Below are positions 37,387 through 52,189 of a stretch of DNA of 64,000 nt, piece after piece (position 1 is the stretch's first letter; every line of letters begins with the position of its first letter). Origin of the DNA: Buttiauxella sp. (GTDB lineage: Bacteria; Pseudomonadota; Gammaproteobacteria; Enterobacterales; Enterobacteriaceae); NCBI GenBank assembly GCA_032000125.1, contig DAMALH010000016.1, positions 2,580 through 66,579 on the forward strand. The letters are read 5' to 3'. The translations under genes were made by a program, and so were the position numbers. The notes under the pieces were generated by a model, which was not told where the DNA came from, did no database searches, and worked only from the letters and a program-made list of their open reading frames with translations.

Positions 37387-37551
37387 TCCGCTTCCTGTTC
37401 AAACTGCGTCTAGTGTGGCGGAAAGCCCCCGTGCTGTGCCAGCAGATTCGATTAAATGTGATCGCGATCGTAATGATGGTGGAAATTTTCAGTATATATG
37501 TATTATTGTGATAAAAATTTTCACCACAATAAGTCCTCGGGGAGAAAATTT

Positions 37552-39108
37552 ATGTCAGTATTCAGCGGAGCCTCATCAGGGAGCTGGTTCGAGAAGGCCC
37601 AGCGGTTTGGAAAATCCTTTATGCTGCCGGTCGCGGTGTTGCCCGCGGCGGGTTTGCTGCTGGGTATCGGCGGTGCGTTATCCAACCCTAATACCGTTGC
37701 GGCCTGGCCATTCCTGGATGTGGCATGGCTTCAGGGCATTTTCACCATCATGGCAAGCGCCGGCTCTATCGTATTTGCCAACCTCGCGGTGCTGTTTGCC
37801 GTGGGGGTCGCCGTTGGGCTTGCGAAGGGCGATAAGGGAACGGCAGGGCTTGCCTCGCTGCTGGCCTATCTGGTAATGAACGCCACCATCAATGCGCTGC
37901 TGACGCTAAGCGGCGCGCTGGCGACAGCCAATCCAGGCGCTGTAGGGCAGGGGATGGCGCTTGGTACGCAGACGCTTGAAACCGGCGTGTTTGGCGGGGT
38001 CGTCATCGGTCTTGTCACCTCGCTGTTGCATAACCGCTATAACAAAATCGAGCTGCCGCAGTTTCTCGGATTCTTTGGCGGATCGCGTTTTGTGCCGATC
38101 GTCAGCTCGCTGGCGGCGATTGTGGTCGGCGCGGTAATGACGCTTGTCTGGCCGCATTTCCAGAAGCTCATTTTCGGCATGGGCGGTCTGGTGGACGCCA
38201 CCGGCTACTTCGGCACCTTTATTTACGGCTTTGTGCTGCGCATGCTTGGCCCGTTCGGCCTGCACCATATCTTCTATTTACCTTTCTGGACTACCGCGCT
38301 TGGCGGCAGCGAGATGATTAACGGCCAGCTTGTGGAGGGCACGCAGCGTATTTTCTTCGCCCAGCTTGGCGATCCTGATACCCAGCAGTTTTACATCGGC
38401 ACCGCGCGCTTTATGTCAGGACGCTTTATCACCATGATGTTTGGTCTGATTGGCGCCTGCCTTGCGATGTACCATACGGCTAAGCCGGAAAACCGCAAAC
38501 GCGTGGCCGGGCTGTTAATCTCCGCGGCGCTGACCTCTTTCCTTACCGGCATCACCGAGCCGATTGAATTCTCGTTCCTGTTTATCGCCCCGGTTCTGTA
38601 CGTGATTCACGCGGTATTCGACGGGCTGGCCTTTATGCTGGCGCATATTCTGCACATCACCATCGGGCAAACCTTCTCCGGCGGCTTTATCGACTTCATG
38701 CTGTTTGGCGTGCTGCAGGGCGAAGCGAAAACTAACTGGCTATTTGTGCCGCTGGTGGGTATCCCGTGGTTCTTTCTTTATTACTTCACCTTCCGTTTTG
38801 TCATCACGCGCTTCAACTTTAAAACGCCGGGTCGTGAAGATGTCTCCACGGAAAATGTGCAGGTTGCGGCGGGGGAGCGCCCTTTACAGGTCATCATCGC
38901 GCTTGGCGGCAAAGAAAACATTGTTGAGCTGGATTGCTGTGCCACCAGGCTGCGCGTCACGCTGCATGACGGCACGCTTGTCGATGAAGCCTTGCTAAAA
39001 GAAACCGGCGCGCGGGCGGTTATCCGCCGTGGGAACGGCGTGCAGGTGATTTACGGTCCACACGTGACCATTATTAAAAATGAAGTAGAGGAGATTCTTG
39101 CCCCATGA
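37552..39108 (+). CDS. PTS transporter, fused EIIC-EIIB of the glucose/N-acetylglucosamine family; no EIIA domain
   Basis: ORF track 37498..39108. I prefer the ATG at 37552, preceded by GGGGAGAAAA. It has a polytopic EIIC with the GITEPIEF motif and a C-terminal EIIB with phospho-cysteine context [10 protein letters not shown]. Confidence 0.8.
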
Positions 39109-39803
39109 AACCATCCATGCTGTCGCAAATTGAGGGAAAACTCATTGTCTCCTGCCAGGCGCTGGATAACGAACCGCTGCACAGCCCGTTTATTATGTCG
39201 CGAATGGCGCTGGCCGCGGCGCAGGGAGGTGCGTCGGCTATCCGTGCCAACAGCCTTATCGACGTAAAAACGATTATGGATGCGGTGGATTTACCCGTTA
39301 TCGCCATCATCAAGCGCGACTATCCGGGGAGCGATGTTTACATTACGGCAACGCTTAAAGAAGTGGATGAACTGATGGCGGTCAAACCAGCGATGATCGC
39401 GATGGATGCCACCGGGCATGAGCGTCCGGGCGAGCTGGATTTGCGTGGGCTGGTCGAGGCGGTTCGCAGCCGTTATCCGGAGCTGCTGCTGATGGCGGAT
39501 ATCGCCACGGTGGACGAAGCGCGCTATGCCGAAGAAATCGGTTTTGACTGCGTTGGCACCACGCTGCACGGCTACACGTCGGAAACTAAAGGGCAAATGC
39601 TGGCAAACAACGATTGTCAGTTCCTGCGCGATGTCCTGGCTGCGGTGAACCTGCCGGTGATTGCCGAAGGTAATGTTGAAACGCCAGCAATGGCGGCTCG
39701 TTGCCTGGCGCTGGGCGCGCATGCGGTGGTGGTAGGCGGGGCGATAACCCGTCCGCAGCAGATCACCAGCCGCTTCGTAAATGCCATGGTTAAGCAAGGG
39801 TAA
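39105..39803 (+). CDS. nanE: N-acetylmannosamine-6-phosphate 2-epimerase (NanE family)
   Basis: ORF track, 232 aa. It has a [10 protein letters not shown]...GGASAIRAN...AIIKRDY pattern typical of NanE, and an ATGA overlap with the PTS gene. Confidence 0.8.
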
Positions 39804-39915
39804 CCATGGCCGACCGGCTCGGTCGCCCCCCGATTGAGCCGGTCACCCCCTTTAAGCATGATCTCAGTCGCCAGTTCTGCGATAATTAGTTTTTACGACT
39901 ATTACAGAGATGATT

Positions 39916-40587
39916 ATGCAGTACCCGATTAACGAGATGTTCCAGACCCTGCAAGGGGAGGGCTATTTTACCGGTGTGCCCGCCATCTTTATCCGCCTGC
40001 AGGGCTGCCCGGTGGGCTGCGCGTGGTGCGATACCAAACACACCTGGGATAAACTCGCGGATCGTGAAGTGTCTCTGTTCAGTATTCTCGCCAAAACTAA
40101 AGAGAGCGATAAATGGGGCGCGGCAAGCGCGGAAGACTTGCTGGCCGTGATGCAGCGTCAGGGCTACACCGCCCGTCACGTGGTGATTACCGGCGGTGAA
40201 CCATGTATCCACGATCTGCATCCCTTAACGTCTTTGCTGGAACACCACGGCTTTAGCTGCCAGATTGAAACCAGCGGCACGCACGATGTCCGCTGCTCGG
40301 CGGCAACCTGGGTAACGGTATCGCCGAAGGTGAATATGCGCGGCGGTTACGACGTGCTTGCTCAGGCGCTGGAACGAGCGGACGAAATCAAACATCCCGT
40401 TGGCCGCATGCGCGACATCGAGGCGTTAGATGAGCTGCTAAGAACGCTTCACGATGACAAAAACCGCATTATCGCCCTGCAGCCTATCAGCCAGAAAGAA
40501 GACGCCACCCGGCTGTGTATTGAAACCTGCATTGCCCGCAACTGGCGGCTTTCGATGCAGACGCATAAGTACCTGAATATCGCCTAG
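39916..40587 (+). CDS. queE: 7-carboxy-7-deazaguanine synthase QueE (radical SAM)
   Basis: ORF track 39910..40587. MQYPINEMFQTLQGEGYFTGVPAIFIRLQGCPVGCAWCDTKHTW matches E. coli QueE. Confidence 0.95.
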   Translation: MQYPINEMFQTLQGEGYFTGVPAIFIRLQGCPVGCAWCDTKHTWDKLADREVSLFSILAKTKESDKWGAASAEDLLAVMQRQGYTARHVVITGGEPCIHDLHPLTSLLEHHGFSCQIETSGTHDVRCSAATWVTVSPKVNMRGGYDVLAQALERADEIKHPVGRMRDIEALDELLRTLHDDKNRIIALQPISQKEDATRLCIETCIARNWRLSMQTHKYLNIA

Positions 40588-40775: not shown

Positions 40776-42224
40776 TTAGTCGACCAGCGGACTCAGCTTC
40801 TGCAACAGCGGGTCAAGGTACTGATTCACCTGCCGATAAACCCCTTCGTTAAGCTGCGTATAAAATGTGTGGTTGCCCATATTGGGCTGGAAGTTATCGC
40901 CCATGCGAATCATCTTCTCGCTCGCTTCCTCGTAGCTTGCGAATGTGCCCACCGCCATCCCGGCGTTAATTGCGCAGCCCACGGAGGCTGAACCTTTCAG
41001 CAGATTGCGGCAGGTTGGCACGCCGAACACGTCGGCAAAAATCTGCATAAACAGGTCGCTGTTGGCGCCGCCGCCGGAAATGATTAGCTGTTTAAACGGC
41101 GTTTTAAGCTCCAGCGCCATCTTGTCCATGTGATTTTTCATGGTGAAGGCAATGCCCTCCAGAATCGAGCGGTACATATGCGCCCGGGTATGGCGGCCGT
41201 CAAAACCAATTATCGTCCCTTTGCGGAACTCAGCCTCCGAAGGCGGCGCCCAGTCGTGAACGGTGATGAGCCCCTCGCAGCCTGCGGGTACTTTTGTGGC
41301 CTCGGCGTTGAGCAATTCTTCGATGGTTAAATCGAGGTCTTTCGCGTCCGCCAGCGCCGCGGCGCCAAACTGATCCCGGAACCAGCTTATCGTCCACATT
41401 CCCCGGCGAACGCCCATGCATTCATAGAGGTAGCGATGAGGAATCGAGGCCTGGAAAGGCCAGAAGTTTTGCGCGTCCTTCACGTTTTCATCGCCGTGGA
41501 CCATTGCGCCGATATAGGTACCCAGGGAGATAAGCGCCACGCCTTTCTCAAGCGTACCTGCACCAAGGGCTTCTACCGCTTTATCATGCGCCGTTGCCAC
41601 AACCGGAATACCGGCCGGAAGGCCAATAAGCCTGGCCGCTTTGTCAGTTAATTTGCCCAGCACTTCCCCCGGCTTCACCACGTCCAGCACCTGCGCGCGT
41701 TCAAGATTACAGCTCTTCCACGCCTGCGGATCGGTGCTCCAGTCGAGCGTGTCATTGTCCATCGGCCACCAGCCGATGTAGTTGGCGCAGGTATCCTTAA
41801 ACTCGCCGGTCAGGCGATGGGTGATATAGCCCGACGTCGTGGTGACGTAGCGCACGCCCTGATAGGCATCAAGGTATTCGTAAGGCTTGTTGAGTCGCTT
41901 ATCCATCCAGTTGATCACCGGGTAAGCCAGCTCGCCGTTGGCCGTCAGCAGCACGCGGCAGCAGCGCACGATGCAAATCCCCATCGCCTGAATTCGGCTG
42001 GTATCGCGTCCCTGGCGGGTAAAATTCGCCACCGCCTCGCGGAAGGCGACCTGTAACGAGTCCCACAGATCGTCATCGGGGTGCTCCGCCAGCAGCGGCG
42101 CGGGAATATCCAGATTGCGCAGCGCCTGTTTCCCTTCGCTGACCACGTTGCCCTGCGTATCAAAAATCACCACCTTGGCGCTTTGCGTGCCGACATCCAC
42201 ACCCATCAAATAGTTAGTTGTCAT
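40776..42224 (-). CDS. ygcE: FGGY-family carbohydrate kinase (YgcE-like)
   Basis: ORF track, 482 aa, with the N-terminal FGGY motif LMGVDVGTQSAKVVIFD. It sits next to queE as in E. coli. Confidence 0.8.
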   Translation of the reverse strand: MTTNYLMGVDVGTQSAKVVIFDTQGNVVSEGKQALRNLDIPAPLLAEHPDDDLWDSLQVAFREAVANFTRQGRDTSRIQAMGICIVRCCRVLLTANGELAYPVINWMDKRLNKPYEYLDAYQGVRYVTTTSGYITHRLTGEFKDTCANYIGWWPMDNDTLDWSTDPQAWKSCNLERAQVLDVVKPGEVLGKLTDKAARLIGLPAGIPVVATAHDKAVEALGAGTLEKGVALISLGTYIGAMVHGDENVKDAQNFWPFQASIPHRYLYECMGVRRGMWTISWFRDQFGAAALADAKDLDLTIEELLNAEATKVPAGCEGLITVHDWAPPSEAEFRKGTIIGFDGRHTRAHMYRSILEGIAFTMKNHMDKMALELKTPFKQLIISGGGANSDLFMQIFADVFGVPTCRNLLKGSASVGCAINAGMAVGTFASYEEASEKMIRMGDNFQPNMGNHTFYTQLNEGVYRQVNQYLDPLLQKLSPLVD

Positions 42225-42247
42225 TTCCGGCTCTCCATTCTCAATAA

Positions 42248-43537
42248 TTATTCAGCTATCGCCTGCGGTTCGGAGCCTGCCTGCTGCGAGCTTTGAATCT
42301 TTCTGAACAGCAGGAAGGTAAACACCAGCACCAGCCCCATGGCGCAGAGCCCCATGATCCACATGTTGCGATAGGCGATGGCGGCGGGCAGGGTGTCCTG
42401 CCAGTGGCCAACCAGCGGGTAAACAAACACGTCCGGCAGGAAGCCAATTACCGAACAAATCCCGACGGTGGTGCCCATAATGAACCCTGGCGTACGCGCC
42501 TCGCCCGGGCAGGCAAAGTAAAGCCCGCGAGAGGCGTAACAGGTAAAAGCGAGCAGCAAAATCAGGCCGATACCGATAGCCACGGACTGTGGCTGACGGG
42601 TAGTGACCAGCAGGGCGACCAGCGAAAGCACGCTTACGAGCGCCAGAAGCTGAATCACGCGCGTCGGGGATTTAACCCGGCTGTAGGTGGTAATCAGACC
42701 GCCGAGCGGGCCGCAGACGGCGCGGAAGATTTTATTGATAACGATGCCCATATAGCTCGCCGCCACCAGCGACATGCCGTACATTTCCGTCAGGTAGTTC
42801 GTGGAATAGCTCAGAATGGCGTAGATAGTGTAAACGCCAAAGATAATCATGCTGCAATACCAGGTGGTGCTGATGCGCAGCACGGAGACGATATCTTTTA
42901 GCTGAAACGCGGGTTTCGCCGCTTCTTCTGTAACAGCGGTGCGGCTGGTAAAGCCGTCGCTGACGAAGAACCAGCACAGCACGCCAAGCGCGATATAGAC
43001 GCCGCTGTAAATCAGAATCACCGCTTTTAAGCTGTTGGCGTCTTCCGGGGCGAAGCGTGAAAAAATCCACATGGTGAACACCGCCAGCGCCATTACGCCC
43101 ACGCCGCGCAGCCCTTCCATCCAGCCCATGATTTTTCCCTGCTCGCTGTGGTCGCCCAGCAACGATGCGGCTTTAATCGAGACCGACCACAGCATCAGGA
43201 TAGTAGTGATGGCAAACGCGACCTGGATGACGATCATTACCCAAAGCGGCGGGTAAAACGCCATTACAACGCCCAGCAGGCCCGTGGCGATCATCGCCAG
43301 CGTCATCATTTTTCTGTGTGAGAATTTGTCGGCAATAATGCCGCTCGGCGCATAAAGAATAATTGCGGTAATACCGAAAGTACTCATTATTAACCCTATT
43401 TCGGTATTGGAAAAGCCCATAAACTTTGCCATGGGAATTTGATAAATATACCGTAAATAGGCCAAGTCAAAACTTACCCCCCCGCTGATACTTATTATTG
43501 CCAGGGTCAGCCAGCGGCGGAAATTGGAATCACGCAT
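42248..43537 (-). CDS. yqcE: MFS transporter (YqcE-like)
   Basis: ORF track 42248..43666. The N-terminal 43 codons of that ORF run through the leader terminator, so I prefer the ATG at 43537 (MRDSNFRRWLTLAIISISGG...), preceded by GAGAAAG. Confidence 0.75.
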   Translation of the reverse strand: MRDSNFRRWLTLAIISISGGVSFDLAYLRYIYQIPMAKFMGFSNTEIGLIMSTFGITAIILYAPSGIIADKFSHRKMMTLAMIATGLLGVVMAFYPPLWVMIVIQVAFAITTILMLWSVSIKAASLLGDHSEQGKIMGWMEGLRGVGVMALAVFTMWIFSRFAPEDANSLKAVILIYSGVYIALGVLCWFFVSDGFTSRTAVTEEAAKPAFQLKDIVSVLRISTTWYCSMIIFGVYTIYAILSYSTNYLTEMYGMSLVAASYMGIVINKIFRAVCGPLGGLITTYSRVKSPTRVIQLLALVSVLSLVALLVTTRQPQSVAIGIGLILLLAFTCYASRGLYFACPGEARTPGFIMGTTVGICSVIGFLPDVFVYPLVGHWQDTLPAAIAYRNMWIMGLCAMGLVLVFTFLLFRKIQSSQQAGSEPQAIAE

Positions 43538-43570
43538 AGTATCTTTCTCATCATTTGGTTTGATTCGGGC

Positions 43571-43632
43571 AAAAAAAAAGAAAAGCAACCAGTCCTTTGC
43601 AGGATGATTACTTTTCTCGGGGTCTCTAGTAA
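43571..43632 (-). terminator. 5'-leader element of yqcE: conserved box TTACTAGAGAC plus a long intrinsic terminator (about 17-bp stem, one bulged C, U9)
   Basis: The minus strand reads TTACTAGAGACCCCGAGAAAAGTAATCATCCTGCAAAGGACTGGTTGCTTTTCTTTTTTTTT. It lies between the predicted promoter and the yqcE start and is a near twin of 43791-43855. Confidence 0.65.
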
Positions 43633-43668
43633 TGGCCAGAATTAGTAACACACCGATAAATTCCATTG

Positions 43669-43684
43669 TGTGAGAAATATCACG
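43669..43684. promoter_or_regulatory. CRP-binding site candidate for the yqcE promoter
   Basis: TGTGA-GAAATA-TCACG matches 9 of 10 consensus half-site positions. Its centre lies about 44.5 bp from the start of the yqcE leader box, which is class II-like spacing. Confidence 0.55.
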
Positions 43685-43737
43685 ATTATGCTTTCGGTCT
43701 GCTTTTTATGGCCGTTAATTGCCCACAAAAACTAACT

Positions 43738-43753
43738 TGTGAAATACGTCACA
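43738..43753. promoter_or_regulatory. CRP-binding site candidate for the ygcW promoter
   Basis: TGTGA-AATACG-TCACA matches both consensus half-sites perfectly. Its centre lies about 45.5 bp from the start of the ygcW leader box. Confidence 0.65.
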
Positions 43754-43790
43754 AAACCTCCCGCGCGGCTATGCTATTTCTTTTAGCCAG

Positions 43791-43855
43791 TTACTAGAGA
43801 CGATGAGAAAAGTAACTTCCCTTTCGGGGGGAGCTTGCTTTTCTCATTTTTTTTG
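43791..43855 (+). terminator. 5'-leader element of ygcW: conserved box TTACTAGAGAC plus a long intrinsic terminator (10-bp perfect lower stem, bulged C, upper stem, U8)
   Basis: The plus strand reads TTACTAGAGACGATGAGAAAAGTAACTTCCCTTTCGGGGGGAGCTTGCTTTTCTCATTTTTTTT. It ends 26 nt before the ygcW ATG. Confidence 0.65.
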
Positions 43856-43880
43856 CGTTCAAAAAATTAAGGGGTTCACC

Positions 43881-44666
43881 ATGTCACTTAGCGCGCTCAA
43901 TGAATTCTCGCTGGATTTCTTCTCGCTGAAGGGAAAAACGGCCATCGTCACCGGCGGCAACAGCGGGCTGGGCCAGGCGTTTGCCATGGCGCTGGCAAAA
44001 GCGGGAGCGAATCTATTTATCCCCACCCTGATTGCCGATAAGGGGGAAACGCAGGAACTCATTGAACAACAAGGCGTTAAGGTCGCCTTTATGACGGTTG
44101 ATATTACCGAAAAAGGGGCCCCGGCCAGGGTGATTGCCCGGTGTGTGGAAACGTTTGGTGCGGTGGATATTCTGGTCAACAATGCGGGAATCTGTAAGCT
44201 TAACAAGGTGCTGGACTTTGGCCGTGAAGACTGGGATCCGATGATCAACATTAATCTGACCGCCGCTTTTGAATTAAGCCACGAAGCCGCAAAGGTTATG
44301 ATTCCACGCAATCAAGGCAAGATTATTAATATTTGTTCACTCTTTTCATATCTCGGCGGGCAATGGTCGCCAGCATATTCTGCCACGAAGCACGCGCTGG
44401 CTGGATTAACCAAAGCGTATTGTGATGAGCTTGCGCAATATAACATTCAGGTAAACGGCATTGCCCCTGGCTATTACGCGACCGATATTACGACTGAAAC
44501 CCGCAGGAATCCGGAAACAAATAAACGCGTGCTCGATCATATTCCAGCCAACCGCTGGGGAGAAACTCAGGATCTCATGGGAGCGATGGTTTATTTATCA
44601 AGCCGCGCCTCTGATTATGTGAATGGTCATTTATTAGTTGTCGACGGTGGTTATCTGGTCAGGTAA
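43881..44666 (+). CDS. ygcW: Short-chain dehydrogenase/reductase, KduD/gluconate-5-dehydrogenase-like (YgcW-like)
   Basis: ORF track 43803..44666. The start of that ORF lies inside the leader terminator, so I prefer the ATG at 43881 (MSLSALNEF...), preceded by AAGGGG. It has the TGGNSGLG cofactor motif and the YSATKHA catalytic YxxxK. Confidence 0.8.
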   Translation: MSLSALNEFSLDFFSLKGKTAIVTGGNSGLGQAFAMALAKAGANLFIPTLIADKGETQELIEQQGVKVAFMTVDITEKGAPARVIARCVETFGAVDILVNNAGICKLNKVLDFGREDWDPMININLTAAFELSHEAAKVMIPRNQGKIINICSLFSYLGGQWSPAYSATKHALAGLTKAYCDELAQYNIQVNGIAPGYYATDITTETRRNPETNKRVLDHIPANRWGETQDLMGAMVYLSSRASDYVNGHLLVVDGGYLVR

Positions 44667-44738
44667 TGCTTTGCAGGTTTATGCCTGCCTCTATTTTCAT
44701 TATTTATATTCCATTTTATTTGTCAGGAAGGAGTTGTC

Positions 44739-46193
44739 ATGTCTTTATCTCGCGAAGCGATTGTGGATCAGTTAAAAGAACTCGTTGGTCCGCAGCAGGT
44801 TATCACCGACGAAAAAGTCTTGCAGAAAAACAGCATCGACCGGTTCAGAAAATATGCGGATATCCACGGTGTCTACACGCTGCCGTTGCCTGCCGCCGTG
44901 GTTAAGCTGCAAAATCCCGAACAGGTTTCCAGCGTGCTGGCCTTCCTGAACAAAAACCGCGTTAACTGCGTGCCGCGCACCGGGGCTTCGGCGACCGAGG
45001 GGGGGCTGGAAACGGTAGTGAAAAATTCGGTGGTGCTGGACGGTTCCGGGCTGAATAAAATCATCAATATCGATATTGAAAACATGCAGGCAACCGCGCA
45101 GTGCGGCGTGCCGCTGGAAGTGCTGGAAAACGCCCTGCGTGAAAAAGGTTACACCACCGGCCATTCGCCGCAGTCCAAGCCGCTGGCGCAGATGGGCGGC
45201 CTTGTGGCAACGCGCAGTATCGGCCAGTTCTCCACGCTGTATGGCGCAATCGAAGATATGGTTGTAGGGCTTGAAGCTGTCTTCCCGGACGGCAGCATTA
45301 CGCGCATTAAAAACGTGCCGCGCCGCGCCGCGGGCCCGGATATTCGCCACGTGATTATCGGTAACGAAGGGGCACTGTGCTATATCACCGAAGTGACGGT
45401 GAAAATCTTCAAATATATGCCCGAAAACAATCTGTTCTACGGCTATATTCTCGACAACATGAAAACCGGCTTTTCTATCCTGCGCGAAGTGATGGTGGAA
45501 GGTTACCGCCCGTCTATTGCCCGCCTGTACGACGCAGAGGACGGCACCCAGCACTTTACCCATTTTGCCGAAGGCAAATGCGTGCTGATTTTTATGGCCG
45601 AAGGATCAAAGCGACTTGCCGAGGCGACAGGTGCCGGTATTGAAGAGATCGTTGTTCGCCATCCGGAATGCAAAAAGGTCGACAGCCGCCTGATTGAAAC
45701 CTGGTTCAATAACCTCAACTGGGGCCCGGACAAGGTTGCTGCCGAGCGCGTGCAGATTATGAAGACCGGCAATATGGGCTTCACCACAGAAGTCTCAGGC
45801 AGCTGGAGCTGCATCAACGAGATTTACCACAGCGTGATCGCGCGCATTCGCAACGAGTTTCCTCACGCCGATGACATCACTATGCTGGGTGGCCACTCTT
45901 CCCACAGCTACATTAACGGCACCAATATGTACTTCGTCTACGACTACAACGTGGTGGACTGTAAGCCGGAAGAAGAGATCGACAAATATCACAACCCGCT
46001 GAACAAAATTATCGTCGAAGAGACCATTCGCCTCGGCGGGTCGATGGTGCATCACCACGGCATCGGTAAACACCGCGTTCACTGGTCGAAGCTGGAGCAC
46101 GGCAGCGCCTGGCCCATTATGCAGGGCCTGAAAGACCAGTACGATCCGCAGGGCATCATGAACACCGGCACCATCTGGCCGATTGAAAAATAA
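44739..46193 (+). CDS. ygcU: FAD-linked oxidase (FAD_binding_4 / alkyl-DHAP-synthase- or GlcD-like; YgcU-like)
   Basis: ORF track, 484 aa. It has an N-terminal FAD-binding PCMH-type region (VPRTGASATEGGLE) and a GGAAGGAG Shine-Dalgarno upstream. Confidence 0.8.
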   Translation: MSLSREAIVDQLKELVGPQQVITDEKVLQKNSIDRFRKYADIHGVYTLPLPAAVVKLQNPEQVSSVLAFLNKNRVNCVPRTGASATEGGLETVVKNSVVLDGSGLNKIINIDIENMQATAQCGVPLEVLENALREKGYTTGHSPQSKPLAQMGGLVATRSIGQFSTLYGAIEDMVVGLEAVFPDGSITRIKNVPRRAAGPDIRHVIIGNEGALCYITEVTVKIFKYMPENNLFYGYILDNMKTGFSILREVMVEGYRPSIARLYDAEDGTQHFTHFAEGKCVLIFMAEGSKRLAEATGAGIEEIVVRHPECKKVDSRLIETWFNNLNWGPDKVAAERVQIMKTGNMGFTTEVSGSWSCINEIYHSVIARIRNEFPHADDITMLGGHSSHSYINGTNMYFVYDYNVVDCKPEEEIDKYHNPLNKIIVEETIRLGGSMVHHHGIGKHRVHWSKLEHGSAWPIMQGLKDQYDPQGIMNTGTIWPIEK

Positions 46194-46201
46194 CACCGGA
46201 C

Positions 46202-46229
46202 GTCGGCTCCTCAGGGGGCCGACTTTTTT
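46202..46229 (+). terminator. Intrinsic terminator after ygcU
   Basis: GTCGGCTCC-TCAG-GGGGCCGAC is followed by TTTTTT. Confidence 0.7.
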
Positions 46230-46256
46230 GATCCGGGTCGACGAAGGAATCTGCTT

Positions 46257-47612
46257 ATGTGCTCCGAACCGGTTCGCATGGACGACCTGCCTCTCAACCG
46301 TTTTCATCTCCGCATTGCCGGGCTGACGTTTGGCGCGCACCTCACCGACGGTTACGTGCTGGGCGTGATTGGCTTTGCGCTGGTGCAGCTCACGCCGCAA
46401 ATGTCCCTTACGCCGCTTCAGGAAGGCCTGATCGGCGGCTCGGCGCTGCTGGGCTTATTTTTCGGCAGCCTGGTGCTCGGCTGGATTTCAGACCATATCG
46501 GGCGCCAGAAAATTTTTAACTTCAGCTTTGTGCTCATCACGCTGGCCTCCTTTGGGCAATTTTTTGCCCAGACGCCGGAACAGCTTTTCTGGCTGCGGGT
46601 TCTGGTAGGTATTGGCCTGGGAGGCGATTATTCCGTAGGGCATACCATGCTGGCCGAGTTCTCGCCGCGCAAATATCGCGGCGTGCTTCTCGGCTCGTTT
46701 AGCGTGGTCTGGACGCTGGGCTATGTCGCGGCCAGCCTGATTGGCCATCAGCTGGTGGATGCCGGGCCGGACGCCTGGCGCTGGCTGCTGGCCTCCGCCT
46801 CATTGCCCGCGCTGGTGATTACGATCCTGCGCTGGGGGACGCCGGAATCTCCCCGCTGGCTGCTGCGTTAGGGGCGGGTTGAGCAGGCTCATCGGATTGT
46901 GCGCCAGTATCTGGGCGAGCATGTGATGCTCGGCGATGAGATAGCCGTCTCTACATCGCGCCATCTGCGAACGCTGTTTTCCGCTCGCTACTGGCGGCGC
47001 ACCGCTTTTAATAGCTTCTTTTTCGTTTGTCTGGTGATCCCATACTTCGCTATTTACACCTGGCTGCCGTCTATCAGCGGCCTGCTGGGGATAGGCCAGG
47101 GGCTGAGCGCGACGATCTTTTTAAACGTCGTGCTGGTCGTCGGCGCCTTGTTGGGGCTGGTGCTGACGCAATGCTGTACCCGGCGCGGCTTCCTGATTGG
47201 CGGCTTTCTGGTCCTGCTGGTGAGCCTGACCACGCTGGCCCTGCTTCCGGCCCATTTCAGCACCGCGATTCTGCTGCTGTTCTTTATCTTCACGCTGACA
47301 ATCTCGGCGGTGAGTAACCTGGTGGGCGTGCTGCCCGCGGAAAGCTTCCCGACGGACATCCGTTCGCTTGGCGTCGGATTCGCCACCTCAATGAGCCGTC
47401 TTGGTTCAGCTATCAGCACCGGGCTGCTGCCGGTGGCGCTGGTATCTTACGGCGTGCAGAGCACCATGCTGATGCTAAGCGCCGTGCTGCTGCTGGGGCT
47501 GCTGGTTTCCGTGTTCTGGGCGCCAGAAACCCGCAATCTCAGCCTGGTTGCGGCCTCCGGTAATAAGGAATATCACCCGGGAGCGACGCATGAACATTCT
47601 GTTAGCCTTTAA
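46257..47612 (+). pseudogene. ygcS: MFS sugar-porter-type transporter (YgcS-like) interrupted by one in-frame TAG at 46869-46871
   Basis: ORF-track entries 46257..46871 and 46899..47612 are in the same frame. The reading ...ESPRWLLR-TAG-GRVEQAHRIVRQYLGE... is continuous across the stop and spans the conserved PESPRWL loop of sugar-porter MFS proteins. An AAGGAA Shine-Dalgarno precedes 46257. Confidence 0.7.
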
Positions 47613-48369
47613 GGCCGAGCCTGATTTATCCATGCTGGCCGAAAAGGACTGGCTGGAGGCCGAACAGGGCAATCTTAATACTGCTCTGACTCGCCCGTGT
47701 TTTGGCGATGATGAACAGGCCGGGGCGGAAATACTGCTGCGCCAGCCAGAGCTAAACCTGACGGCAATAAGCGTGGGCAACGGACGGGCGGAAATTTTTT
47801 TACGCCAGCTAAAAGCCTCTGGATTCCAGCAGGTTGTTAACGTGGCGCTGGATGACGAGGCCCGTTTTGCACCACGACAAATCGCAGACCTGCTGGCCGC
47901 CTGGCAGCAGCGCAACCCGCAGTCGCTGATTGTGCTGGGATCGCGCAGCGTGGAAGGAAATAGTGGTCAAACGGGTTTTTATCTGGCGGAGCTGCTGGGC
48001 TGGCCCTGCTTTAGCCGCGTTTGCGATCTGGCGTTAGAGACAGAAAGACAGCAGGTGAGCCTTGAGCAGCGTATTGAAAAAGGCCATCGGCAGCTTACCG
48101 TGCGGCTGCCTGCGGTGGTAATGATGGAGAGCGACGGGCGCTACTGCCTGAGAACGCCGGGGCTGCGGCAAAAGCTGGCGGTAAACGCCGGGGACGTTCA
48201 GATCGTTAGCGCCGAATCCCTGGGCTACAGCACGCCAGCATCGCCGCGATGCCTGAAGCTGACGCGTAAAACGCAGCGTCGCGCGGGTCTGATTATTCAG
48301 GGCAGGGATGCGCGGGAAAAAGCACTTCACCTGTACCGGGACTGGCTACAAAAAAGGATGCAACCATGA
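47590..48369 (+). CDS. ygcR: Electron-transfer-flavoprotein beta-subunit-like protein (YgcR-like)
   Basis: ORF track 47548..48369. I prefer the ATG at 47590 (MNILLAFKAEPD...). It has ETF-beta/FixA-like length and layout and is immediately followed by an ETF-alpha-like gene with an ATGA overlap. Confidence 0.7.
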   Translation: MNILLAFKAEPDLSMLAEKDWLEAEQGNLNTALTRPCFGDDEQAGAEILLRQPELNLTAISVGNGRAEIFLRQLKASGFQQVVNVALDDEARFAPRQIADLLAAWQQRNPQSLIVLGSRSVEGNSGQTGFYLAELLGWPCFSRVCDLALETERQQVSLEQRIEKGHRQLTVRLPAVVMMESDGRYCLRTPGLRQKLAVNAGDVQIVSAESLGYSTPASPRCLKLTRKTQRRAGLIIQGRDAREKALHLYRDWLQKRMQP

Positions 48370-49232
48370 AAATTGCTCTGGTTATGCCGGATGGAGAAAG
48401 TCAGCAGCGCAATGAGTTTGGAAGCTTTCTTGCTAACAGCCGCCTGACTTCAGCGGCGTGCGAGCGCTGGCAGCTTCCCGCTATGGATTTTACGGAAAAT
48501 GCGTTAGCCGCACTTGCCGCTGAGTTTGCGCAAAATGCGGTAGATATGCTGCTTTTCCCTTCCGGCTGGCAGGGGGCTGAACTGGCAACGCGCCTGGCGT
48601 TCAGGCTTGGCGGCGATGCGCTGAGCAACGTCAACCACGGAGATTTTGCCGATCGGTGCAGCGTGAACAAACCCGCCTGTGGCGGAGCGATGGAAGCCGA
48701 AATCAGGCTACAAACCAGGCCCTGGTGCCTTAGCGTAGCAGCGGCGCCGGGGGCGACGGCCTGGCAGCCCGATTGCCCCACGGTGCCTCTTGCGGCAACA
48801 GACGCTGAACCGGACTGGCTGGTAAGCCAAAGTACAATACTTAAGGCGCAGGCGGGTGGATTAGCGGAGGCAAAGTTTGTGCTGGCGGCAGGGCGGGGAG
48901 TAGAAAGCGCGGACAATATGCGGCGGTTCGAAGCGCTGGCGGAACAGTGGGGGGCAGAGGTTGGCGCGAGCCGCGAAGCCGTAATGCACGCCTGGTGCGG
49001 CATGGATCGTCTGATAGGGATGTCCGGCACCCAGGTGGCGCCAGAGATTTGTATTGTAGCCGGTGTCTCGGGAGCTTCCGCTTTTACCAGCGGAATTAAC
49101 CGTAGCCGGTTTATCGTCGCTATCAACAACGATCCCCAGGCGCCTGTTTTCAGGCAGGCGGACGTGGGGGTTGTTGATGAGCTGATGCCGGTGCTCGAAG
49201 CGCTGGACGAACTCGCTACGGCAAAAGCTTAG
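48366..49232 (+). CDS. ygcQ: Electron-transfer-flavoprotein alpha-subunit-like protein (YgcQ-like)
   Basis: ORF track, 288 aa. The C-terminal FAD-binding signature is GMSGTQVAPEICIVAGVSGASAFTSGINRSRFIVAINNDPQAPVF. Confidence 0.8.
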   Translation: MKIALVMPDGESQQRNEFGSFLANSRLTSAACERWQLPAMDFTENALAALAAEFAQNAVDMLLFPSGWQGAELATRLAFRLGGDALSNVNHGDFADRCSVNKPACGGAMEAEIRLQTRPWCLSVAAAPGATAWQPDCPTVPLAATDAEPDWLVSQSTILKAQAGGLAEAKFVLAAGRGVESADNMRRFEALAEQWGAEVGASREAVMHAWCGMDRLIGMSGTQVAPEICIVAGVSGASAFTSGINRSRFIVAINNDPQAPVFRQADVGVVDELMPVLEALDELATAKA

Positions 49233-49791
49233 CCAGTTGCCAGACGCCGGTATTAGTCGTGGCGATGGCGAGCGCGCCGGCGTTTAACGCGTTATTGGCG
49301 TCTTCCGCATCGCAAACCAGGCCCCCGGCGATAACCGGCAGATCGATCTTATCCGTTACCCACTTCATCACTTTTGGCATGCAGCCCGGCAGGATTTCGA
49401 TGCAGTCCGGGTTCGACTGCGCCACCTGCTTATCGATATTGTGATAGGAAATTGAATCAACGATAAACAGCCGGTGAATGGCGAAAAACCCCTGCGCGCG
49501 TGCGGCTTTCACCATCGACGCTTTGGTGCTGATGATGCCATCGGCGGCCGTCACCAGCTTCAGGAAGTTAATCACGATCTCTTTATTCGAGGTGCCTTCC
49601 AGTAAATCCACATGCACAAAGGCGTACTTATCGGCCTTTTTGATCTGCTGGACGATGCCGGTAATGGTGCAGATATTGCCATAGAGCACGGAAATAAACT
49701 TACAGTCAGACTCCAGCGCGAGCTGCAGGCTCTGGTTATCTTTTACCGCGGCGATAAGCGGGTGTTGCTTGAGTAAAGGCATTAAAGACAC
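49216..49791 (-). CDS. ygcP: GlpP-family (glycerol-3-phosphate-responsive type) transcription antiterminator homologue (YgcP-like)
   Basis: ORF track, 191 aa. It has a PLIAAVKD...VLYGNI...FVHVDLLEG pattern typical of the G3P_antiterm family. It overlaps the ygcQ 3' end convergently by 17 nt. Confidence 0.75.
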   Translation of the reverse strand: MSLMPLLKQHPLIAAVKDNQSLQLALESDCKFISVLYGNICTITGIVQQIKKADKYAFVHVDLLEGTSNKEIVINFLKLVTAADGIISTKASMVKAARAQGFFAIHRLFIVDSISYHNIDKQVAQSNPDCIEILPGCMPKVMKWVTDKIDLPVIAGGLVCDAEDANNALNAGALAIATTNTGVWQLAKLLP

Positions 49792-49856
49792 AGCAGGAAC
49801 TCCATTCTTTAACCCGGTATAGATAAGGCCGCGGCCTGAAAAACCGGGTATGACAT

Positions 49857-50129
49857 TTAACCAAAGCGTAGCTGGATGCCCAAGCCCGCAGACGGATAGC
49901 GCCAGCGGCTGAGAGTTTGCTCATCGCACAGCAGACGACAGGTGCCGCACTCCAGACAGCCGCCGGGGTCAATGACCAGGCCGCTGTTCTCGTTGAAGCG
50001 ATACAGTCCGGCGGGACAGGCCTTCACCAGCACGGAGAGCGTGGCGTAATCGGCATGGTCTGCCAGCACAATATGGGGTTCAGCATCCGGGATATAGCGA
50101 TTTTTTGCCAGTTTTTCATTAACGTTCAC
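49857..50129 (-). CDS. ygcO: FixX-like ferredoxin (YgcO-like)
   Basis: ORF track, 90 aa, with cysteine pattern CPAGLY...CLECGTCRLLC. It overlaps the upstream FixC-like gene. Confidence 0.8.
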   Translation of the reverse strand: MNVNEKLAKNRYIPDAEPHIVLADHADYATLSVLVKACPAGLYRFNENSGLVIDPGGCLECGTCRLLCDEQTLSRWRYPSAGLGIQLRFG

Positions 50130-51400
50130 AGGCTTCTGGCTCCTCGAAAAATATCTTTAACCAGGCGCGACCAGCCGGTACGTCGGGCGTGACGCCACAG
50201 CAGCGCCGCCAGGCGATGCGGCGTGTTACAGCCGACAGAATGAACCTCATGCTGGATTGCGGAAAGCAAATCGGGGTAAGCCTGGTAGAGCGCGGGCGTT
50301 TGCAGGAATTCGGGTATTTTCTGGTAGCGGGACATGATTGACCACAGCGAATTTATTTCAAGCTGCCGCCGGTAAACAGGCCCCAGGTCCGTGTCGTCGT
50401 TTTCCCGCAGCGCGGTAATTAACGTCCGGGCCGCTGCCTGCGCCGAAAGCGCGGCTAAATCCATACCGCGAATCGTAAAGCCGGTATTCACGCAAAAGCG
50501 GGCGCTGTCGCCCACCAGCAGATAGCCTTTTCCCGCAAGGCGTTCAGGCACGCCCTTTAGGCCGCATTCCGGAATCAAATGCGCGCCGTACTCCATGACT
50601 TCCGTCCCCCGTAGTAAAGGGCGTAGCGAAGGATGCCGTTTAAATTGTTCCAGCAGTTCAGGAAGCGGGACGGGAGCGCCGCGAAGCGAAGAAAGCGGGC
50701 AAACCAGGCCGAGGGAGAGCGTTTCGTTATTGGTATACAGAAAGCCACCGGCGGGCAGATCGGCGCAGATACCGCCGGTAAACAGCCAGGCTGCGCCTTC
50801 ATTACCTTCCAGCGCAAAGCGGTTTTCCAGCGTTTCTTTCGGGAGGGCAAGTATCTCTTTTACGCCCACCGCCACGCCGTTTTCCGACAGCTTTTTCACC
50901 AGCAGATGTTGTTCGGCCAGCAGCGTATTCGCCCCTTCGGCAATCACCACCGTTTTCGCAAACAGCGCTTCGCCCTCAACGATAACGCCGCGTACCGCGC
51001 CGTTTTCAATCTTAAAAGATTCAACCTGCACGCCAGTAAGACACTGCGCGCCAGCTTGTTCAGCCTGAGCGAACAGCCACGGATCGAGCCGCGCGCGCAA
51101 AACGCTCCAGCAGGCGGCGTCGGCATGGTGATAGTCAAGCGTAGAGGCTCCGCCGTTTGTCAGGGCGGAAAGTTTTTCGCGGGTGATCTTTCTCTCAAGC
51201 GGGGCCGAGCGGACAAAGTCGGGAAAGATGGCTTCAAAGGCATAGCTGTAAAGCCTGCCGCCGGACAGATTCTTTTCGCCGGGCCCGGCGGCTCGTTCGA
51301 GCAGCAAAACTTTTAGCCCGGCGCGAGCGCAAAGCGTGGCGCAGCAGGAACCTGCGACGCCTGCGCCTACGACAATAACATCGAAATCTGGAGTGGACAT
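50126..51400 (-). CDS. ygcN: FixC-like FAD-dependent oxidoreductase (ETF:quinone oxidoreductase type; YgcN-like)
   Basis: ORF track 50126..51409. I prefer the ATG at 51400 (MSTPDFDVIVVGAGVAGS..., dinucleotide-binding motif). Confidence 0.8.
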   Translation of the reverse strand: MSTPDFDVIVVGAGVAGSCCATLCARAGLKVLLLERAAGPGEKNLSGGRLYSYAFEAIFPDFVRSAPLERKITREKLSALTNGGASTLDYHHADAACWSVLRARLDPWLFAQAEQAGAQCLTGVQVESFKIENGAVRGVIVEGEALFAKTVVIAEGANTLLAEQHLLVKKLSENGVAVGVKEILALPKETLENRFALEGNEGAAWLFTGGICADLPAGGFLYTNNETLSLGLVCPLSSLRGAPVPLPELLEQFKRHPSLRPLLRGTEVMEYGAHLIPECGLKGVPERLAGKGYLLVGDSARFCVNTGFTIRGMDLAALSAQAAARTLITALRENDDTDLGPVYRRQLEINSLWSIMSRYQKIPEFLQTPALYQAYPDLLSAIQHEVHSVGCNTPHRLAALLWRHARRTGWSRLVKDIFRGARSL

Positions 51401-51513
51401 CCTGCGCACCTGTTTATTGCGACAGGGCAGAGTAGCAAAACGCCAGGAAGATTAGTTTGACGCGGGGCGCAGAGCATAAAGTCCGGAAAGCGGCTTGCGA
51501 ACTTCAGGAGCGA

Positions 51514-51873
51514 TTAGCCTTTATACACGCAGCCTGCGGTACAGGTTTCTTTAATCATTACCGCGCTAAGAAGCGGTACGAGCGGTTTCATCTCGTCCCA
51601 AATCCATTTTGCCAGCACTTCGCTGGTGGGGTTCTCAAGACCTGGAATATCATTCAGATAGTAATGATCCAGCCTGTCGTAAGTAGGTTTAAACGCGGCC
51701 TTCAGTTCGGAAAAATCCATAATCCAGCCCGTATACGGATCGACCTCGCCGGTAATTTCCAGGCGCACCATAAACGAGTGGCCGTGCAGGCGACCGCACT
51801 TATGGCCTTCCGGCACATGCGGCAGGCGGTGAGCGGCTTCGAAGGTAAAATCTTTAAACAGGGTGGTTGCCAT
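51514..51873 (-). CDS. queD: 6-carboxy-5,6,7,8-tetrahydropterin synthase QueD
   Basis: ORF track 51514..51951. I prefer the ATG at 51873 ([34 protein letters not shown]...), matching E. coli QueD. Confidence 0.95.
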
Positions 51874-52189
51874 TATTGCAGTCTCAGTAGGGCGAAAAAC
51901 CGCCGCATAGTACCGGAATCCATTATTTTGCGCATTAACTAAAGCTGTCATCCGGGCTTATTCGTCTTTCCTTGCCGCTTTCAGGAAATTAACCTCTTTT
52001 ATATCAATTAATTGCTTAACCTCTTTTGATGTTATGGGTTACCCGAAAAAACGGTTAGTCATTTTGGTTATTTGTTATTTCCATCCCTTCTTTAATTGTT
52101 ATTATCCGGCTGGTTAACCTTACCCTATGAATGCTTTTTACCGTTAAACGTTGAAAACGGTACCCTTTGCTACTGGAACCTAATCAAGC

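Follow-up and report, generated by a model that had tools for sequence, protein, structure and literature searches.

The orphan ygc cluster of a Buttiauxella genome as a possible three-enzyme route from substituted glycerols to triose phosphate

The window analyzed here is a stretch of 64,000 nucleotides from the draft genome of a Buttiauxella sp. (GenBank assembly GCA_032000125.1; contig DAMALH010000016.1, positions 2,580 to 66,579), which comprises 4.14 Mb in 76 contigs and is 95.5% complete. At positions 40776-51400, the window carries ten genes in the order, and between the queE and queD flanks, of the Escherichia coli ygcE-yqcE, ygcWUSRQ and ygcNOP genes. This ygc cluster is a known orphan; the locus is not new in itself and represents one more orthologous copy. 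The comparison across phyla suggests that the ten genes are one version, the enterobacterial one, of a catabolic cassette that is widespread and shared by horizontal transfer. The cassette is built around an FGGY kinase, a KduD-like short-chain dehydrogenase/reductase (SDR; YgcW) and the flavoenzyme YgcU. Our best explanation is that this triad would convert a 1-substituted glycerol-type compound to triose phosphate, with an electron-transfer flavoprotein (ETF; YgcRQ) and a FixCX-like pair (YgcNO) as accessories. We hold this explanation, taken as a whole, tentatively and at slightly less than an even chance.

A three-enzyme core and its neighbors

The genes of the window were called from the list of open reading frames (ORFs) together with Pfam and NCBIfam scans of the proteins, and 83 loci with 10-kb flanks were compared by tblastn with the window proteins and by de novo ORF clustering. 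The first-pass annotation of this DNA had proposed an analysis of gene neighborhood and co-occurrence, which in these 83 loci reveals a universal core of SDR, FGGY kinase and YgcU. YgcU is present in 81 loci, the SDR in 79 (66-95% identity) and the kinase in 75, and the triad spans Pseudomonadota, Thermodesulfobacteriota, Bacillota, Chloroflexota and Actinomycetota-type metagenome-assembled genomes (MAGs). The SDR, which had no place in the pathway originally sketched, is the most constant partner of YgcU. ETF-beta and ETF-alpha genes adjoin YgcU in 57 loci, and a homologue of the antiterminator GlpP is found in 52 (38 from Enterobacterales and 14 of Bacillota type, with 48-59% identity across phyla). 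The transporter YqcE (73-93% identity in 40 enterobacterial loci), the transporter YgcS and the FixC-like YgcN occur in the Enterobacterales loci only.

Minimal clusters in Serratia proteamaculans, S. quinivorans, S. nevei, Pantoea and Erwinia contain only two major facilitator superfamily (MFS) transporters, a LysR gene, GlpP, the kinase, the SDR and YgcU. Those of Halobacillus, Virgibacillus, Pontibacillus and Alkalihalobacillus contain only GlpP, the SDR, the kinase, YgcU and one transporter, which is betaine-type in the first three genera. ORF clustering of the flanks found no further conserved gene around the minimal clusters of bacilli, and no aldolase, isomerase or epimerase is conserved near the core across the analyzed loci. 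The three core enzymes must therefore reach central metabolism unaided, and a C3 glycerol-like skeleton that ends as triose phosphate would be the simplest explanation of such a self-sufficient triad. C4-C6 polyols were rejected as candidate substrates, given the lack of a conserved isomerase or aldolase. A contig titled Pseudomonas lundensis (locus L041) also carries the minimal cluster, in a layout nearly identical to that of S. proteamaculans and S. quinivorans and with 78-86% sequence identity to them; either the assembly is mislabeled or contaminated, or the cluster was recently transferred.

YgcU (44739..46193, + strand) consists of 484 residues and contains a PCMH-type FAD_binding_4 domain (PF01565) and an FAD-oxidase_C domain (PF02913). 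Its homologues, with 67-97% identity, are distributed over at least five phyla, and relatives occur in at least 597 stretches of species-representative genomes. Those with 67-75% identity belong to Desulfobacterales, Sporomusa, clostridial-type Bacillota, halophilic bacilli, Chloroflexota and Thermoleophilia MAGs. In alkyl-dihydroxyacetone phosphate synthase (AGPS; dihydroxyacetone phosphate, DHAP), the catalytic residues are Arg419, Tyr578 and a loop formed by His615-617. R262, Y398 and H438-H440 of YgcU align with R419, Y578 and H615-617 of AGPS and are invariant in 13 YgcU sequences from several phyla, and the register of the alignment is confirmed by a deposited Y578F variant chain. In agreement with the initial assignment of YgcU to the alkyl-DHAP-synthase/GlcD type, the nearest solved structure is AGPS (E 2e-40), followed by glycolate oxidase, D-lactate dehydrogenase (D-LDH) and LctD. 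A family-profile search of solved structures places AGPS (E 1.4e-58; PDB codes: 4bby and 2uuu) far ahead of glycolate oxidase, LctD and D-LDH. Compared with the GlcD-type cut-offs, YgcU scores much lower (139.9 bits versus 567.9 for TIGR00387 and 65.7 bits versus 897 for NF008408).

YgcU and AGPS share the FAD_binding_4 fold, the cap domain and the equivalents of the catalytic Arg, Tyr and His residues. However, the alignment starts at AGPS residue 177, and YgcU is without the N-terminal extension of approximately 170 residues, which indicates that YgcU is AGPS-like and not an AGPS. In addition, a kinase and an SDR are encoded in the same catabolic operon as YgcU, and YgcU is often paired with an ETF, whereas AGPS is redox-neutral. 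The transporters beside YgcU argue for a small polar substituent instead of a fatty chain; long-chain alkylglycerols were rejected as substrates because of the missing N-terminal domain and the polar-solute transporters. Of the role as an FAD oxidase that was first given to YgcU, the flavoenzyme assignment stands, but simple dehydrogenation of a polyol phosphate is not favored: the AGPS catalytic residues are kept, and the reaction of YgcU may be the replacement or removal of a C1 group on a ketone resembling DHAP.

The two remaining core enzymes also score below the NCBIfam equivalog cut-offs. YgcW (43881..44666, + strand; adh_short) scores below the KduD equivalog cut-offs (349.6 bits versus 369 for NF005390 and 286.4 versus 338.85 for TIGR01832); by these profiles, it is a close relative of KduD outside the KduD (2-dehydro-3-deoxy-D-gluconate 5-dehydrogenase) family. 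The ygcE-like kinase (40776..42224, - strand; FGGY_N/FGGY_C) is below every NCBIfam equivalog cut-off, with XylB (180 bits versus 380) as the best match, LsrK at 167 versus 528 and GlpK at 117 versus 590.

The substrate had been regarded as carbohydrate-type. The neighbors of the core in its relatives, in which YgcU and the SDR are 67-78% identical to those of the window, speak against this reading, as they include BCCT/OpuA transporters and MttB/corrinoid systems and no sugar-processing enzymes. The core is flanked by BCCT or OpuA-type transporters (the latter with an OpuAC binding protein) in non-enterobacterial loci, and by MttB-superfamily methyltransferases, a corrinoid protein and a pterin-binding methyltransferase in anaerobes; the corrinoid protein and the pterin methyltransferase lie beside the core in Desulfobacula. 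BCCT, OpuAC or MttB is present in approximately 30 of the 42 non-enterobacterial loci, and most of the exceptions are short contigs. In two Desulfobacterales MAGs, the SDR-YgcU genes are immediately preceded by an MttB gene (L056, 7174-8646; L074, 991-2574) that contains an in-frame TAG; the TAG is embedded in GG-TAG-GDSK, and the sequence remains conserved beyond it. These two MttB genes likely encode pyrrolysine-type trimethylamine methyltransferases, while ten other MttB proteins have an ordinary residue at this position, as in quaternary-amine methyltransferases. Given the identity of YgcU and the SDR, the substrate class is probably shared with the window, and the substrate is probably a quaternary-ammonium, betaine or choline-type compound instead of a plain sugar. 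Two further candidates were rejected: nicotinamide or pyridine compounds, for which the evidence is indirect, and glycerophosphocholine, for which a simple phosphodiesterase would suffice.

The ETF and FixCX genes

The ygcR gene (47590..48369, + strand; ETF domain) encodes an ETF beta-like subunit, and ygcQ (48366..49232, + strand) encodes an ETF alpha-like subunit with an ETF domain (PF01012) and a full-length ETF_alpha domain (PF00766, positions 2-81 of 81). YgcR and YgcQ score nearest to canonical, non-bifurcating ETFs (human and Paracoccus), and all the NCBIfam ETF equivalogs are below cut-off. Among its PDB relatives, YgcR is weakly closest to human and Paracoccus ETF-beta, and its recognition-loop motif is conserved. 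YgcN (50126..51400, - strand), which shows a weak ETFQO_UQ-bd match, is related to Thermotoga FixC (7koe_C, E 1.5e-54) and to ETF-quinone oxidoreductase (ETF-QO; 2gmh, E 9.5e-20). YgcO (49857..50129, - strand) matches the NCBIfam FixX model with 87.8 bits versus a cut-off of 166 and contains the motif CP...CxxCxxCxxxC. Judged from these matches, YgcNO is a pair of a FixC-type flavoprotein and a FixX-type 4Fe-4S ferredoxin, for which quinone reduction is predicted. A whole-genome search identified YgcQ as the only ETF-alpha in the genome of the window, which is thus without the fixABCX and ydiQRST sets of E. coli.

ETF-beta and ETF-alpha are located directly 3' of YgcU in three phyla, where a distinctive N-terminal motif and the recognition loop are common to them. 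Among the strict anaerobes, every locus with sufficient flanking sequence has this arrangement; neither the aerobic bacilli nor the minimal clusters of S. proteamaculans, Pantoea and Erwinia contain the two genes. No ETF-alpha was found anywhere in the genomes of S. proteamaculans, Ca. Pantoea symbiotica, Erwinia sp. S63 and Pantoea sp. BAV 3049. A docking model of YgcU with YgcR scored 0.66, compared with 0.00 for the best control; this mark is reached by 58 of 80 solved complexes and by 2 of 110 mismatched pairs. The runs share at least 90% of the contacts, with a partner pLDDT (predicted local distance difference test) of 76-78. In the modeled interface, residues 186-195 of YgcR, which form the recognition loop, are placed on residues 377-383, 345, 371 and 402-404 of YgcU. 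YgcU of the ETF-less bacilli differs at the residues predicted to contact the ETF, but this difference is confounded by lineage and suggestive only.

The first-pass annotation had drawn a dedicated chain from YgcU through the ETF to the FixCX-like proteins. The first link is supported by the adjacency of the genes in the 57 loci and by the single ETF-alpha of the genome, and the docking model shows a likeness to solved dehydrogenase-ETF complexes. As a conserved design, however, the chain does not hold, since FixCX is confined to Enterobacterales and four cluster-bearing species are without ETF-alpha. The simplest reading is that the ETF is accessory yet dedicated and may serve as an electron sink for YgcU when O2 is unavailable.

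Known dehydrogenase-ETF(-ETF-QO) chains, such as the Acetobacterium Ldh-EtfAB complex LctBCD (7qh2), D-2-hydroxyglutarate or D-lactate dehydrogenase with ETF, and Thermotoga EtfABCX (7koe), share with the ygc cluster a VAO-family FAD enzyme beside etfB-etfA. The modeled YgcU contact is likewise made through the recognition loop of ETF-beta, and YgcN is nearest to Thermotoga FixC. In contrast to these systems, YgcU is not of the GlcD/LctD type, the ygc ETF is dispensable in several lineages, and bifurcation is not indicated by the scores of YgcR and YgcQ. The E. coli caiTABCDE-fixABCX system for carnitine would also share a FixABCX-like set attached to quaternary-amine metabolism, if the substrate class is correct. 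It differs from the ygc cluster, which contains no CoA-transferase, acyl-CoA dehydrogenase or BCCT transporter and consists of enzymes of unrelated families.

The ETF genes are followed by another candidate partner in some lineages. A second FAD-linked oxidase of 505-565 residues, which is D-LDH/LctD-like and remotely related to YgcU, is encoded after ETF-alpha in 18 non-enterobacterial loci (L045-L060 and others, for example L053:13249-14796); it is found in Desulfobacterales and Sporomusa and is absent from all Enterobacterales. Within the cluster itself, a GC-rich hairpin with a T-run (46202..46229, + strand) lies just after the ygcU stop, between ygcU and ygcS, and is terminator-like. A hairpin at the same position with a different stem sequence is seen in most enterobacterial loci (for example L007, L009, L011, L016 and L021), and it may act as a partial terminator that sets the ratio of ygcWU to ygcS-R-Q.

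The ygcS-like gene (46257..47612, + strand; Sugar_tr/MFS, sugar-porter/organic-cation type) consists of two halves in the same frame. It had been described as a broken second MFS transporter, and a single in-frame TAG at 46869-46871 indeed splits the frame. This position is Gln (or Arg/Lys) in Buttiauxella, Enterobacter, Atlantibacter, E. coli and Serratia, and the frame of the relatives is intact at 451 residues. The TAG is either a strain-specific nonsense mutation, which makes ygcS a pseudogene, or a sequencing error. Because of this codon, one of the two MFS transporters is probably lost in the strain of the window. The N-terminal half of YgcS resembles organic-cation and SV2-type MFS transporters in the NCBIfam scan, and the remaining nine genes of the cluster are intact open frames.

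These features bear on the possibility that the ETF and FixCX are separate from the kinase-SDR-YgcU core, either acquired independently for another dehydrogenase or present as a decaying remnant, and that the locus may be cryptic here. ETF and FixCX evolve much faster than the core (47% identity to E. coli for YgcR, 39% for YgcQ and 52% for YgcN versus 86% for YgcU and 82% for YgcW), they are absent from the minimal clusters, the ygcU-ygcS hairpin separates the two gene groups, ygcNOP has no leader motif, and both the second FAD enzyme of the anaerobes and the nonsense codon in ygcS would fit. This explanation nevertheless appears improbable, as the ETF genes directly follow YgcU with the same motif and loop in three phyla, the genome encodes no other ETF, the cluster contains no other ETF-dependent dehydrogenase, the YgcU-YgcR model scored above its controls, and nine of the ten genes are intact.

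The proposed route weighed against its alternatives

According to our best explanation, a small 1-substituted glycerol-type compound, with a substituent that is probably of the quaternary-ammonium or betaine type, would be imported by YqcE and YgcS here and by BCCT or OpuA transporters elsewhere. Its terminal diol would be phosphorylated and its C2 oxidized to yield a 1-substituted dihydroxyacetone phosphate. KduD- and gluconate-5-dehydrogenase-type SDRs oxidize the secondary hydroxyl of a terminal 1,2-diol. The FGGY kinase and the SDR would thereby generate X-CH2-CO-CH2-OPO3, the scaffold on which AGPS exchanges the C1 substituent via a flavin N5 adduct. AGPS-like flavin chemistry at C1 would allow YgcU to release the substituent and leave triose phosphate, a step that is chemically coherent by analogy with AGPS. 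The phosphorylated intermediate would be the likely ligand of the antiterminator YgcP and would allow transcription to pass the terminators in the ygcW and yqcE leaders, and catabolite control would come from CRP. Without oxygen, YgcRQ and YgcNO would carry electrons from the YgcU flavin to the quinone pool, and the ETF could either be the stoichiometric acceptor of an oxidative cleavage or keep the YgcU flavin oxidized. The more specific proposal, that YgcU is a new kind of catabolic flavoenzyme that employs the chemistry of AGPS to cut a non-hydrolyzable C-N+ (or ether/thioether) bond at C1 of a substituted dihydroxyacetone phosphate, is quite unlikely in our estimate.

Several observations weigh against this route. 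The enterobacterial loci use MFS transporters and not BCCT or OpuA, and no BCCT-family transporter (BetT or CaiT type) was found anywhere in the genome of the window by a whole-genome search, so the enterobacterial substrate could differ. MttB homologues are numerous in Desulfobacterales genomes, and some of the adjacency could be due to chance. We know of no abundant natural 1-trimethylammonio-glycerol, and a literature search on dihydroxypropyl-trimethylammonium names did not retrieve a natural one. AGPS is redox-neutral, and the analogy with it does not explain why a stoichiometric ETF would be required. The docking pass reflects likeness and not binding, since similar dehydrogenase-ETF complexes have been solved (7qh2 and 1t9g); moreover, Enterobacterales without an ETF conserve the YgcU residues predicted to contact it no less strictly, and the second FAD enzyme of the anaerobes may share or own the ETF genes. 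The order of the steps and the identity of the substituent are what we infer.

A more conventional pathway, which is close to the one first proposed, starts with a neutral sugar or polyol that is imported and phosphorylated. The polyol phosphate would be dehydrogenated by YgcU in the manner of GlpD or EryB, with the ETF and FixCX as the obligatory path to quinone. The combination of an FGGY kinase and a GlpP-type regulator mirrors the logic of GlpK/GlpD/GlpP for glycerol and of EryA/EryB for erythritol in Brucella, and the enterobacterial MFS transporters show sugar-porter similarity. GlcD-type enzymes (D-LDH, D-2-hydroxyglutarate dehydrogenase and LctD) use ETF (PMC9232219), and both the adjacency of the ETF to YgcU and the docking model would be expected. 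However, an obligatory chain is at odds with the four species that have the cluster and no ETF-alpha and with the restriction of FixCX to Enterobacterales, and YgcU carries the Arg/Tyr/HHH signature of AGPS and scores far below the GlcD cut-off. The pathway assigns no role to the universally conserved SDR, the isomerase or aldolase that a C4-C6 polyol phosphate requires is lacking, and the relatives adjoin betaine-type transporters and methylamine methyltransferases. We consider this alternative unlikely.

The electrons could also flow in the opposite direction, in line with a proposal made for FixABCX and CaiA in the carnitine respiration of E. coli. YgcNO and YgcRQ would then feed electrons from quinol or NADH to YgcU for the reductive cleavage of a C-X bond beside a ketone, for example with the release of trimethylamine, and the pathway would serve equally as an anaerobic electron sink and as a source of carbon. 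In E. coli, the other FixABCX-like sets accompany reductases, the ETF is never missing from the strict anaerobes and aerobes lack it, and the relatives have links to quaternary amines and trimethylamine. Against this direction, YgcR and YgcQ are nearest to canonical non-bifurcating ETFs, the aerobic bacilli and the ETF-less Serratia and Pantoea retain YgcU without an electron donor module, and the product, acetol phosphate, is not a central metabolite and has no conserved follow-up enzyme. We regard reductive cleavage as improbable.

Regulation, the Buttiauxella locus and its significance

The ygcP gene (49216..49791, - strand) encodes a GlpP-type antiterminator (G3P_antiterm, PF04309; 213 bits, profile positions 2-173 of 173). 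Its candidate targets are the leaders of ygcW (43790..43854, + strand) and yqcE (43571..43633, - strand), which are near twins and contain a conserved box, followed by GAGAAAAGUAA, a long hairpin and a U-run. The ygcW leader contains the box GTTACTAGAG, GAGAAAAGTAAC, the terminator hairpin and U8, and the yqcE leader contains the box ATTACTAGAG, GAGAAAAGTAAT, the long hairpin and a U-run. Each leader lies behind a CRP-like site, with a consensus TGTGA-N6-TCACA at 43738..43753 on the ygcW side and TGTGA-N6-TCACG at 43669..43684 on the yqcE side, both read directly from the DNA. The leader motif occurs at 60 places across the analyzed loci, and in Bacillota with a GlpP homologue, Halobacillus, Virgibacillus and Pontibacillus among them, the SDR gene is preceded by an almost identical leader. 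This leader is absent in the Desulfobacterales loci, which carry GntR regulators instead. No Rfam family matches the ygcW and yqcE leaders, and a motif scan across the loci found no leader motif for ygcNOP.

Across 31 distinct leader variants, the base that opens the box covaries with the one immediately 3' of AGUAA (G-C in 14, A-U in 16 and 1 mismatch), and a second pair changes from U-A to C-G. The covariation fits an antiterminator helix that would compete with the 5' arm of the terminator. The earlier proposal of a kinase coupled to a GlpP-type antiterminator that acts on leader terminators is plausible in view of the twin leaders, which are conserved across phyla and covary. In the Bacillus subtilis glp regulon, GlpK is the kinase, GlpD is the FAD dehydrogenase and GlpP is the antiterminator that acts on the glpD, glpFK and glpTQ leaders. 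The ygc cluster shares with this regulon an FGGY kinase, a flavoenzyme that would act on the phosphorylated C3 product, and a PF04309 antiterminator with leader terminators. Unlike the glp regulon, it has a flavoenzyme of the VAO/AGPS type instead of the GlpD type, the SDR as an obligatory extra step and a distinct leader motif, and the ligand of YgcP is presumably not glycerol 3-phosphate itself. The ygcN start is located 113 nt downstream of queD on the same strand (51401-51513), with neither a terminator-like hairpin nor the ygc leader motif in between; ygcNOP, which includes the antiterminator gene, may thus be read through from queD.

All ten genes listed in the first-pass annotation are present at the positions given by it, according to the ORF list and the Pfam and NCBIfam scans, and both the 17-nt convergent overlap of ygcQ and ygcP (49216-49232) and the position between queE and queD were correctly recognized. 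The yqcE-like MFS transporter (MFS_1) extends over 42248..43537 on the - strand, within an open frame that continues to 43666. On one side, the cluster is flanked by a queE-like gene (39910..40587, + strand; Pfam Radical_SAM and Fer4_12; radical SAM, 7-carboxy-7-deazaguanine synthase type), which is 87-93% identical to the ygcE-flanking gene of enterobacterial loci. On the other side is a queD-like gene (51514..51879, - strand; PTPS domain, 6-carboxytetrahydropterin synthase type). Upstream of queE, genes for a phosphotransferase system EIICB protein and a NanE-like N-acetylmannosamine 6-phosphate epimerase (37498-39803) form a pair that is also found in many relatives (including L005, L011, L014 and L016).

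The annotated locus of E. coli IAI1 has the order queD-ygcNOP-ygcQRSUW-yqcE-ygcE-(CRISPR)-queE. The ygc cluster of E. coli K-12, which is annotated with unassigned function (SEED 'cluster Ygc'), agrees with the window in its ten gene families and in their order and orientation; of 5426 complete E. coli genomes, 5074 have a match to the cluster. YgcU, YgcW, YgcP, YqcE and YgcS of the window are 68-86% identical to their E. coli counterparts (79-86% when YgcS is set aside), and the DNA identity of the cluster is approximately 77%. In contrast, the ETF and FixCX share merely 39-52% identity with those of E. coli. Compared with the window, the E. coli locus has a CRISPR array between ygcE and queE, a gap of approximately 148 nt in place of the ygcP/ygcQ overlap, an uninterrupted ygcS and a kinase of another lineage. 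The nearest YgcU proteins are from a Buttiauxella MAG (97%) and a Cedecea isolate (95%).

The window kinase is 97% identical to that of Buttiauxella, 77-82% to Serratia/Rahnella and 63-72% to Desulfobacterales kinases, and only 46-49% to those of E. coli, Citrobacter, Klebsiella and Enterobacter. In a quick tree, this 'type A' kinase groups with Yersiniaceae, Hafniaceae and Erwiniaceae beside the Desulfobacterales kinases, while the E. coli, Citrobacter, Klebsiella and Enterobacter kinases form a separate long-branch clade. Enterobacter sp. Cy-643 (L006) has a YgcU that is 94% identical to that of the window, yet it carries the other type of kinase. As far as the tree and identities indicate, one kinase lineage has evidently been exchanged for another while the rest of the locus kept its synteny, and the placement of the kinase in a clade apart from E. 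coli YgcE makes the window locus a mosaic.

The statement that the genes have no established substrate agrees with a literature search on the gene names, the SEED label and the enzyme-family combinations, which found no functional assignment within the library searched. Published data include a computationally predicted CRP site between yqcE and ygcW in E. coli (PMC1794230) and an improvement of nicotinamide mononucleotide production by YgcS overexpression (PMC8601175). In enterohemorrhagic E. coli, D-serine induced ygcU 1.69-fold, and deletion of ygcU had no phenotype (PMC13012123).

The ygc genes are among the larger blocks of unassigned E. coli genes. The comparison narrows an 'unknown sugar cluster' to a triad route from a 1-substituted glycerol, probably a quaternary amine, to triose phosphate, and it adds the whole-genome absence or uniqueness of the ETF, the controlled docking, the pyrrolysine-type MttB neighbors, the kinase mosaic and the conserved ygcU-ygcS hairpin. 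If the route is correct, an ether-lipid-synthase-like flavoenzyme would operate in catabolism, with an ETF/FixCX module that appears only where oxygen cannot serve. A proteobacterium would employ protein-dependent RNA antitermination, through a GlpP-type protein and an RNA leader switch common to Bacillota and Proteobacteria. If the substituent is trimethylammonium, ygc would be an unrecognized route to trimethylamine, shared by nearly all E. coli and frequent among gut Enterobacteriaceae, marine sulfate reducers and halophilic bacilli, and it would bear on the formation of trimethylamine in the gut.

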